IMG/VR virus record: IMGVR_UViG_2513237361_000014
Length of the DNA stretch: 19,370 nt
From: a virus
Taxonomy: Duplodnaviria; Heunggongvirae; Uroviricota; Caudoviricetes
Direction: 5' to 3' (one strand)
Every line of letters begins with the position of its first letter. The first letter of the stretch is position 1. Below, in pieces: positions 2,139 to 3,326 of the stretch. The notes beneath the pieces were generated by a model. That model saw nothing but the letters and a program-made list of their open reading frames with translations, did no database searches and was not told the DNA's origin. A program made the position numbers and the translations under genes.

Positions 2139-3322
2139 GTGTCTAAAGAAAAATTTGAACGTACAAAACCGCACGTTAACGTTGGTACTATCGGCCACGT
2201 TGACCACGGTAAAACTACTCTGACCGCTGCAATCACCACCGTACTGGCTAAAACCTACGGCGGTGCTGCTCGTGCATTCGACCAGATCGATAACGCGCCG
2301 GAAGAAAAAGCTCGTGGTATCACCATCAACACTTCTCACGTTGAATACGACACCCCGACCCGTCACTACGCACACGTAGACTGCCCGGGGCACGCCGACT
2401 ATGTTAAAAACATGATCACTGGTGCTGCTCAGATGGACGGCGCGATCCTGGTTGTTGCTGCGACTGACGGCCCGATGCCGCAGACCCGTGAGCACATCCT
2501 GCTGGGTCGTCAGGTAGGCGTTCCGTACATCATCGTGTTCCTGAACAAATGCGACATGGTTGATGACGAAGAGCTGCTGGAACTGGTTGAAATGGAAGTT
2601 CGTGAACTTCTGTCTCAGTACGACTTCCCGGGCGAGACACTCCGATCGTTCGTGGTTCTGCACTGAAAGCGCTGGAAGGCGACGCAGAGTGGGAAGCGAA
2701 AATCCTGGAACTGGCTGGCTTCCTGGATTCTTACATTCCGGAACCAGAGCGTGCGATTGACAAGCCGTTCCTGCTGCCGATCGAAGACGTATTCTCCATC
2801 TCCGGTCGTGGTACTGTTGTTACCGGTCGTGTGGAACGCGGTATCATCAAAGTTGGCGAAGAAGTTGAAATCGTTGGTATCAAAGAGACTCAGAAGTCTA
2901 CCTGTACTGGCGTTGAAATGTTCCGCAAACTGCTGGACGAAGGCCGTGCTGGTGAGAACGTAGGTGTTCTGCTGCGTGGTATCAAACGTGAAGAAATCGA
3001 ACGTGGTCAGGTACTGGCTAAGCCGGGCACCATCAAGCCGCACACCAAGTTCGAATCTGAAGTGTACATTCTGTCCAAAGATGAAGGCGGCCGTCATACT
3101 CCGTTCTTCAAAGGCTACCGTCCGCAGTTCTACTTCCGTACTACTGACGTGACTGGTACTATCGAACTGCCGGAAGGCGTAGAGATGGTAATGCCGGGCG
3201 ACAACATCAAAATGGTTGTTACCCTGATCCACCCGATCGCGATGGACGACGGTCTGCGTTTCGCAATCCGTGAAGGCGGCCGTACCGTTGGCGCGGGCGT
3301 TGTAGCTAAAGTTCTGAGCTAA
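2139..3322 (+). pseudogene. tufB: Elongation factor Tu, tufB-type (C-terminus ...VAKVLS), with a 1-bp deletion frameshift near 2635-2636
   Basis: GTG start followed by [27 protein letters not shown]. Frame 1 ends at 2666 (...[14 protein letters not shown]); a second frame carries the rest of EF-Tu ([15 protein letters not shown]...GVVAKVLS). The span is 1184 nt, one short of the 1185 nt expected for 394 codons plus a stop. Confidence 0.85.
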
Positions 3323-3326
3323 TTAG

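Follow-up and report, generated by a model that had tools for sequence, protein, structure and literature searches.

Introduction

Does a tuf gene that stands between two blocks of phage tail genes, and lacks one base of its reading frame, represent a host gene that moved into a prophage, an inactivated chromosomal copy or a product of sequence assembly? The question was raised by a stretch of 19,370 nt from the IMG/VR record IMGVR_UViG_2513237361_000014, which is referred to here as the window. The original prediction, made from the sequence alone, described a promoterless EF-Tu gene of the tufB type, set between inverted phage tail blocks and carrying a one-base deletion. Judging from the structure of the sequence, the phage and tuf arrangement is probably an artefact of assembly and concatenation in a public draft genome and no real genomic feature; we give this reading a probability of roughly 0.88.

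Source of the window

Over window 1-12666 (12,666 nt compared), the sequence was identical, base for base, to AEME01000001.1, with both tuf junctions and the deletion included. This record (assembly GCA_000208565.2), a draft of 2011, stands in GenBank as a single "contig" of 4,809,826 bp. The sequenced strain is Escherichia sp. TW09308, which was isolated from freshwater, falls into cryptic clade V and is regarded as E. marmotae. Two EF-Tu ORFs, of 175 and 163 aa, are annotated as genes in this record, and it is the only contig on record with the truncated product of 175 aa.

The original prediction had allowed for an introduced lesion, and the lesion or the flanks could have been planted or synthesized while the window was prepared. 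The oddity of a block cut precisely at a CDS is the only point in favor of such a change. The identity with the public record, which extends to both junctions and the deletion, and the truncated ORFs called in that record argue against it, and we discount it altogether: the deletion was already present in AEME01000001.1.

Block structure of the window

Synteny was broken at eight or more points in the 19.4 kb of the window, which thus comprised at least nine blocks (Table 1). The breaks truncated kefG, gp46, the hub gene, ymfQ, the fiber gene, gad and psu. Each break that could be tested lay 0-4 nt from the edge of a sequence that breaks assemblies, namely tufA/tufB, rrn, gadA/gadB, fimS or an IS4-family element. 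Within the blocks, the sequence was 99.7-100% identical to complete or draft genomes of E. marmotae, and these genomes continued natively past each break. A coincidence of block ends with the ends of repeats or invertible segments was shown for tuf, rrn, gad, fimS and IS4, but not at 283|284 within kefG and not at the ends of the phage blocks.

Table 1. Blocks and features of the window, with positions counted from its first base.
Feature	Position	Strand	Remarks
kefG, 5′ 283 nt from ATG	1-283	+	96.8% to E. coli kefG; match begins at the annotated start codon
Phage block A	284-2136	-	SfV/SfIV-type (Mu-like tail) prophage baseplate genes
Genes of block A	gp46 5′ part 284-521; gp45/V 521-1069; hub gp44/P 1069-2136	-	Pfam GP46, Phage_Mu_Gp45 and GpP-like on record
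tuf block	2137-3325	+	2 nt upstream, CDS 2139-3322, 3 nt downstream; from BLAST limits and tuf alignments
tufA-like positions	2138, 2139, 2153, 2183, 2207, 2216, 2219, 2237, 2273, 2429; 3325 after the stop		From alignment
Missing C	2635-2636	+	GCGA^GACAC; the frame shifts, stop at 2664-2666
Phage block B	3325-3970	+	Same prophage type, inverted relative to block A
Genes of block B	ymfQ 3′ part to 3677; gp53-like tail-fiber gene, first 290 nt, 3681-3970	+	ymfQ without its first 77 codons
Unique contig bamD-rluD-yfiH-clpB	3969-9400		Ends: IS4-family insertion site; first base of rrn repeat
gadA/gadB repeat contig, glutamate decarboxylase 3′ ~370 codons	9401-10513	+	5′-truncated; after the clpB terminator region, before fimE
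Unique contig fimE-fimB-nanC-nanM-nanS-...-psu 5′ part	10514-18571		Ends inside P4-like psu
P4-like fragment, icd-like region, 606 nt	18572-19177		Separate block
Further block	19178 onward

The block from bamD to clpB was 100.000% identical (5432/5432) to the complete E. marmotae sequence CP099351.1. At its left end, near 3970, an IS4-family element begins 0-4 nt away in four complete E. marmotae genomes and in a 2.6-Mb scaffold of a fifth sister assembly. In these four genomes and this scaffold, the element, which encodes a transposase of 442 aa, was located between bamD and raiA. At its right end, the clpB side ended with ...TTATATTTTTCG, and both K-12 and E. marmotae continued with CTTGTCAGGCCGG, the -35 region of rrnG P1. 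The identity between rrnG and rrnB begins at CTTGTCAGG, directly after the break at 9400|9401. The rrnG operon, which follows clpB in E. coli and E. marmotae, was missing from the record at this position.

The gad block begins inside the part of the gene where gadA and gadB are nearly identical, and it ended 4 nt past the stop codon (TGATAAC), exactly where the homology between gadA and gadB of K-12 ends. This block is a collapsed repeat contig of gadA and gadB. A distance of 4 nt separates the start of the next contig from the 9-bp inverted repeat of the fimS switch (2988-2996 of locus L008). Assemblies break at an invertible segment when a culture contains it in both orientations, and the position of this break suggests that both orientations of fimS were present in the sequenced culture. 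From fimE to psu, the block was 99.7-99.95% identical to four sister contigs (the best match, at 99.95%, was gapless over 8,058 nt), and these contigs continued into fimS-fimA on one side and into the rest of psu on the other. The break at 18571|18572 lay inside a gene of a P4-like satellite, and related sequence was found at up to nine places per searched E. coli genome.

Several other features were observed in this part of the window. A remnant of a P4-like satellite, with pieces of psu, an icd-like region and an ogr/delta-like region, was found beside the nan genes (16579-19370). In sister strains, the satellite remnant was followed by a PvuII-type restriction-modification system with a C protein (positions 11059-13668 of the sister locus L036). 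The accession AEME01000001.1 has been cited for the PvuII-type system (PMC3850674). An ORF of 197 aa at 17371-17964, between nanS and the psu remnant, had predicted hydrophobic segments and no Pfam match on record, and it was present without change in many contigs of clade V (107 index blocks). The last stretch, window 19178-19370, matched sequence often found on E. coli plasmids.

Upstream of the window, the record had the native order argD-yhfK-crp-yhfA-prkB-yheU-yheT-yheS-kefG, and the kefG piece was the end of this contig. Native kefG continued differently after nt 283, and the break at 283|284 coincided with none of the repeats identified. Possible causes in TW09308 would be a gap in coverage or the insertion of an IS element. 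Two chimeric ORFs crossed the join between kefG and the phage sequence. The one at 1-300 (+; 99 aa), which is a gene in the public record, combined the N-terminus of kefG with a tail read from the antisense strand of the phage sequence; the other, at 216-524 (-; 102 aa), combined the N-terminus of gp46 with a tail read from the antisense strand of kefG.

Phage blocks and their junctions with tuf

As deposited, and as the original prediction had described, tuf stood between two mutually inverted phage tail blocks. These were 98.8-99% identical to a prophage of the SfV/SfIV type. Block A aligned without gaps to the prophage of NZ_CP013031 at 99.0% (11112-12964 of the fetched locus) and showed 98.3% identity to phage SfIV. 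The alignment of block B to the same prophage was also gapless, at 98.8% (9656-9011 of the fetched locus). The hub gene lacked its first 12 nt and gp46 lacked its 3′ part.

The junctions were searched for elsewhere. The set of 5,426 complete E. coli genomes contained no locus that combined tuf with either flank, and none of 50,697 phage records, searched with the whole window, contained tuf joined to baseplate genes. A tuf gene carried by phages was also considered as a candidate and rejected; the tuf-bearing matches among the phage records were mislabelled bacterial contigs or unrelated tuf fragments only. A 44-mer and a 34-mer that span the junctions had zero matches in 185,579 species-representative genomes, in viral contigs and in metagenome contigs. 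A host gene captured by a phage was not what these results described: the junction was not conserved, and the hub, ymfQ, gp46 and fiber genes were all truncated.

The arrangement could nevertheless be read literally, as a tufA CDS that was captured by, or moved into, a degraded and internally inverted remnant of an SfV-like prophage and was then frameshifted. The deposited sequence does read so, with no N spacer. However, if the arrangement were real, the chromosome would have to have been broken independently at eight or more points within 19 kb, and all of these points would have to fall on the borders of tuf, rrn, gad, fimS and IS4 repeats. A real arrangement would also need the excision of tuf exactly at the ends of the homology between tufA and tufB, as well as the loss of the stretch from kefG to tuf. 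In E. coli, the stretch between kefG and tufA holds rpsL, rpsG and fusA, and fusA was seen directly upstream of tufA in the fetched comparison sequences. With the flanking phage genes truncated, and with the junction found in no other genome, phage or metagenome searched, we regard a real insertion into a prophage as extremely improbable. Inversion or recombination between tufA and tufB was rejected as a cause as well; it would leave the flanks of the tuf loci beside the gene, not phage flanks.

The tuf block is of the tufA type

Homology to tuf was confined to the CDS, the 2 nt before its GTG and the 3 nt after its TAA, and the block matched the span of homology between tufA and tufB to within 1-2 nt at both ends. 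The gene had been predicted to span 2139-3326; the start held, whereas the end did not, with the stop codon ending at 3322.

To assign the gene, sites were used that distinguish tufA from tufB in E. coli as well as in E. ruysiae. All 10 of the 10 discriminating sites in the 5′ 290 nt carried the tufA base, and so did two positions outside the CDS, one directly before GTG and one 3 nt past TAA. The assignment to the tufB type had been suggested by the C-terminal Ser, and it was not borne out: the tufA of E. ruysiae also ends in Ser. The tuf gene of the window is of the tufA type and not of the tufB type. E. ruysiae was the nearest tuf comparator: a search of species-representative genomes with a degenerate 61-mer matched this species, E. 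whittamii and other genera as well, whereas no match came from E. marmotae or E. coli.

No tRNA genes were found within the window, and there was no promoter-like site upstream of or around tuf, as the original prediction had stated. The gene also lacked the native context of tufA, with no fusA upstream and no tufA terminator downstream, and the break of the contig would explain this non-native context.

The tufA-specific bases extended across the whole 5′ part of the block, unlike the outcome of a strict de Bruijn collapse of two copies. This implies that the assembler must have tolerated a divergence of ~2%, through an identity-tolerant overlap or merging step or through bubble-popping.

The missing base

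The translation confirmed the reading frames that had been described. The EF-Tu ORF starts with the GTG at 2139 and comprises 175 codons; it was in frame up to ...SQYDFPG. The remainder, DTPIVRG...AKVLS, followed from 2636 in the frame shifted by +1 and ended with the TAA at 3320-3322. The Pfam domains GTP_EFTU, EFTU_D2 and EFTU_D3 were split over the two ORFs, with no continuous frame of 394 codons.

A missing nucleotide near 2635-2636 had been predicted, and the alignments agreed: there was a single gap, a C after 2635 (GCGA[C]GACAC), and it was the only base missing in comparison with tufA and tufB of K-12 and of E. ruysiae, tufA of BL21 and a tuf contig of E. whittamii. The deposited site reads GCGAGACAC, and the form with the C present is GCGACGACAC. 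Every fetched related tuf sequence that covered 2635-2636 showed the same single gap in the window. A 31-mer that bears the deletion had no match in metagenome contigs.

With the C restored, the gene encoded a continuous EF-Tu of 394 aa identical to TufA of E. ruysiae. The restored gene differed from E. ruysiae tufA by 7 nt, and all seven differences were synonymous changes at third positions; the same was true of 10 of the 11 nt differences from K-12 tufA. Since the substitutions are synonymous and the repaired protein equals TufA of E. ruysiae, the gene gave no indication that selection had been relaxed. The other core genes were of full length, both within the window and in its upstream flank.

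Natural frameshifts in tuf are rare, and consensus errors concentrate in repeat contigs. For the C that is missing after 2635, an error of the consensus in a repeat contig is the most likely explanation (roughly 85-90%).

Here, the context could be an artefact and the deletion real. The tufA of TW09308 would then be frameshifted and inactive at its normal locus downstream of fusA, and the strain would live on tufB alone. The deletion does stand in the deposited sequence, and the tuf block may have been built for the most part from tufA reads, given that all discriminating sites in it were tufA-like. No indels were found in the unique blocks of the record when they were compared with near-identical sister strains over 13.5 kb, which indicates good base quality and leaves some room for a genuine deletion. 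Moreover, strains of E. coli and Salmonella can live with only one functional tuf gene. Against a real frameshift stand the synonymous nature of the other substitutions, the identity of the repaired protein with TufA of E. ruysiae, and the absence of the deletion from all fetched related tuf sequences and of its 31-mer from the metagenome contigs. In addition, gene conversion homogenises tufA and tufB, and strong selection acts on both, which should make natural frameshifts rare and short-lived. A frameshifted tufA in TW09308 is therefore unlikely in our view, and it is just as doubtful that this strain, an environmental E. marmotae, represents a natural Escherichia with a single tuf gene, sampled in the interval between a recent frameshift in tufA and its repair by gene conversion from tufB. 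A consensus error remains the preferred explanation of the missing base.

Proposed origin of the arrangement

For the arrangement as a whole, the following course of events may be proposed. AEME01000001.1 would be a pseudo-molecule, in which short-read contigs were written end to end with no N spacers. Judging from the sequence, it was probably the submitters who joined the contigs. The tuf block would be a stand-alone repeat contig of the tufA/tufB pair. The assembler would have been unable to link this contig to the unique flanks of tufA or tufB, and would have cut it where the copies diverge, at the ends of the CDS. The two phage pieces may be other small contigs that were written beside tuf by chance. 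They are probably segments common to related prophages of TW09308, and we infer that the phage blocks are repeats within this genome. In the living strain, an intact tufA would be expected downstream of fusA. The break in kefG, which matched no identified repeat, and the uniformly tufA-like 5′ part of the tuf block are points that speak against this course of events.

Under the artefact reading, tuf would stand without a promoter, a tRNA leader and a terminator because its flanks sit on other contigs, and not because it moved into a prophage. Both "promoterless" and "between inverted phage tail blocks" apply to the deposited file rather than to the chromosome. The observation behind the original prediction was sound, and its interpretation was supported in part: misassembled flanks, which it had named itself as the outcome that would speak against it, are what the evidence shows.

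A lone tuf contig was not peculiar to this record. In drafts of E. whittamii, Citrobacter, Kluyvera, Pseudocitrobacter and others, tuf was found as lone contigs of 242-1028 nt or at contig ends. As a separate observation, the tuf of Citrobacter youngae NZ_GG730305.1 (locus L020, 4313-6424) matched the window in three overlapping pieces. The tuf search pattern occurred twice in this sequence, 560 nt apart, and this looks like a local misassembly or a duplication within tuf.

Implications for the use of the record

The phage and tuf arrangement, if it arose as proposed, has no biological significance. Its practical value is a warning on AEME01000001.1, in which contigs appear to be joined without spacers, at least over the last ~90 kb. 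These joins create false gene neighborhoods, chimeric ORFs and apparent pseudogenes. Scans of this record for odd gene contexts, prophage cargo or pseudogenes would return false positives at the joins, and other records built likewise would share the same risk.

Comparison with known systems

Prophages of the SfV/SfIV type, which are found at ssrA in E. coli and Shigella, possess gp46-V-hub and ymfQ-fiber genes that are 98-99% identical to blocks A and B. In the reference prophage, the two blocks are on the same strand, 1,455 nt apart. In contrast, the window contained only two fragments (1,853 and 646 nt), truncated at both ends and mutually inverted, and the intervening 1,455 nt were absent.

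The tufA gene of Escherichia belongs to the str operon (rpsL-rpsG-fusA-tufA). The CDS in the window was 99.3% identical to that of E. ruysiae and 99.0% to tufA of E. coli, whereas fusA, the tufA terminator and one C after 2635 were missing. The tufB gene of E. coli is located in the order thrU-tyrU-glyT-thrT-tufB. The C-terminal Ser is common to the window gene and TufB of K-12; unlike tufB, however, the window gene starts with GTG instead of ATG, its 5′ sites and flanking bases are tufA-like, and no tRNA genes accompany it.

The window resembled most closely what is known of repeat contigs and un-spaced pseudo-molecules: the blocks ended at the ends of multi-copy or invertible sequences, matched sister strains perfectly inside, and had unrelated neighbors. 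Current drafts part their contigs by runs of N or place them in separate records, whereas AEME01000001.1 fuses them directly, and chimeric and truncated ORFs were called as a result.
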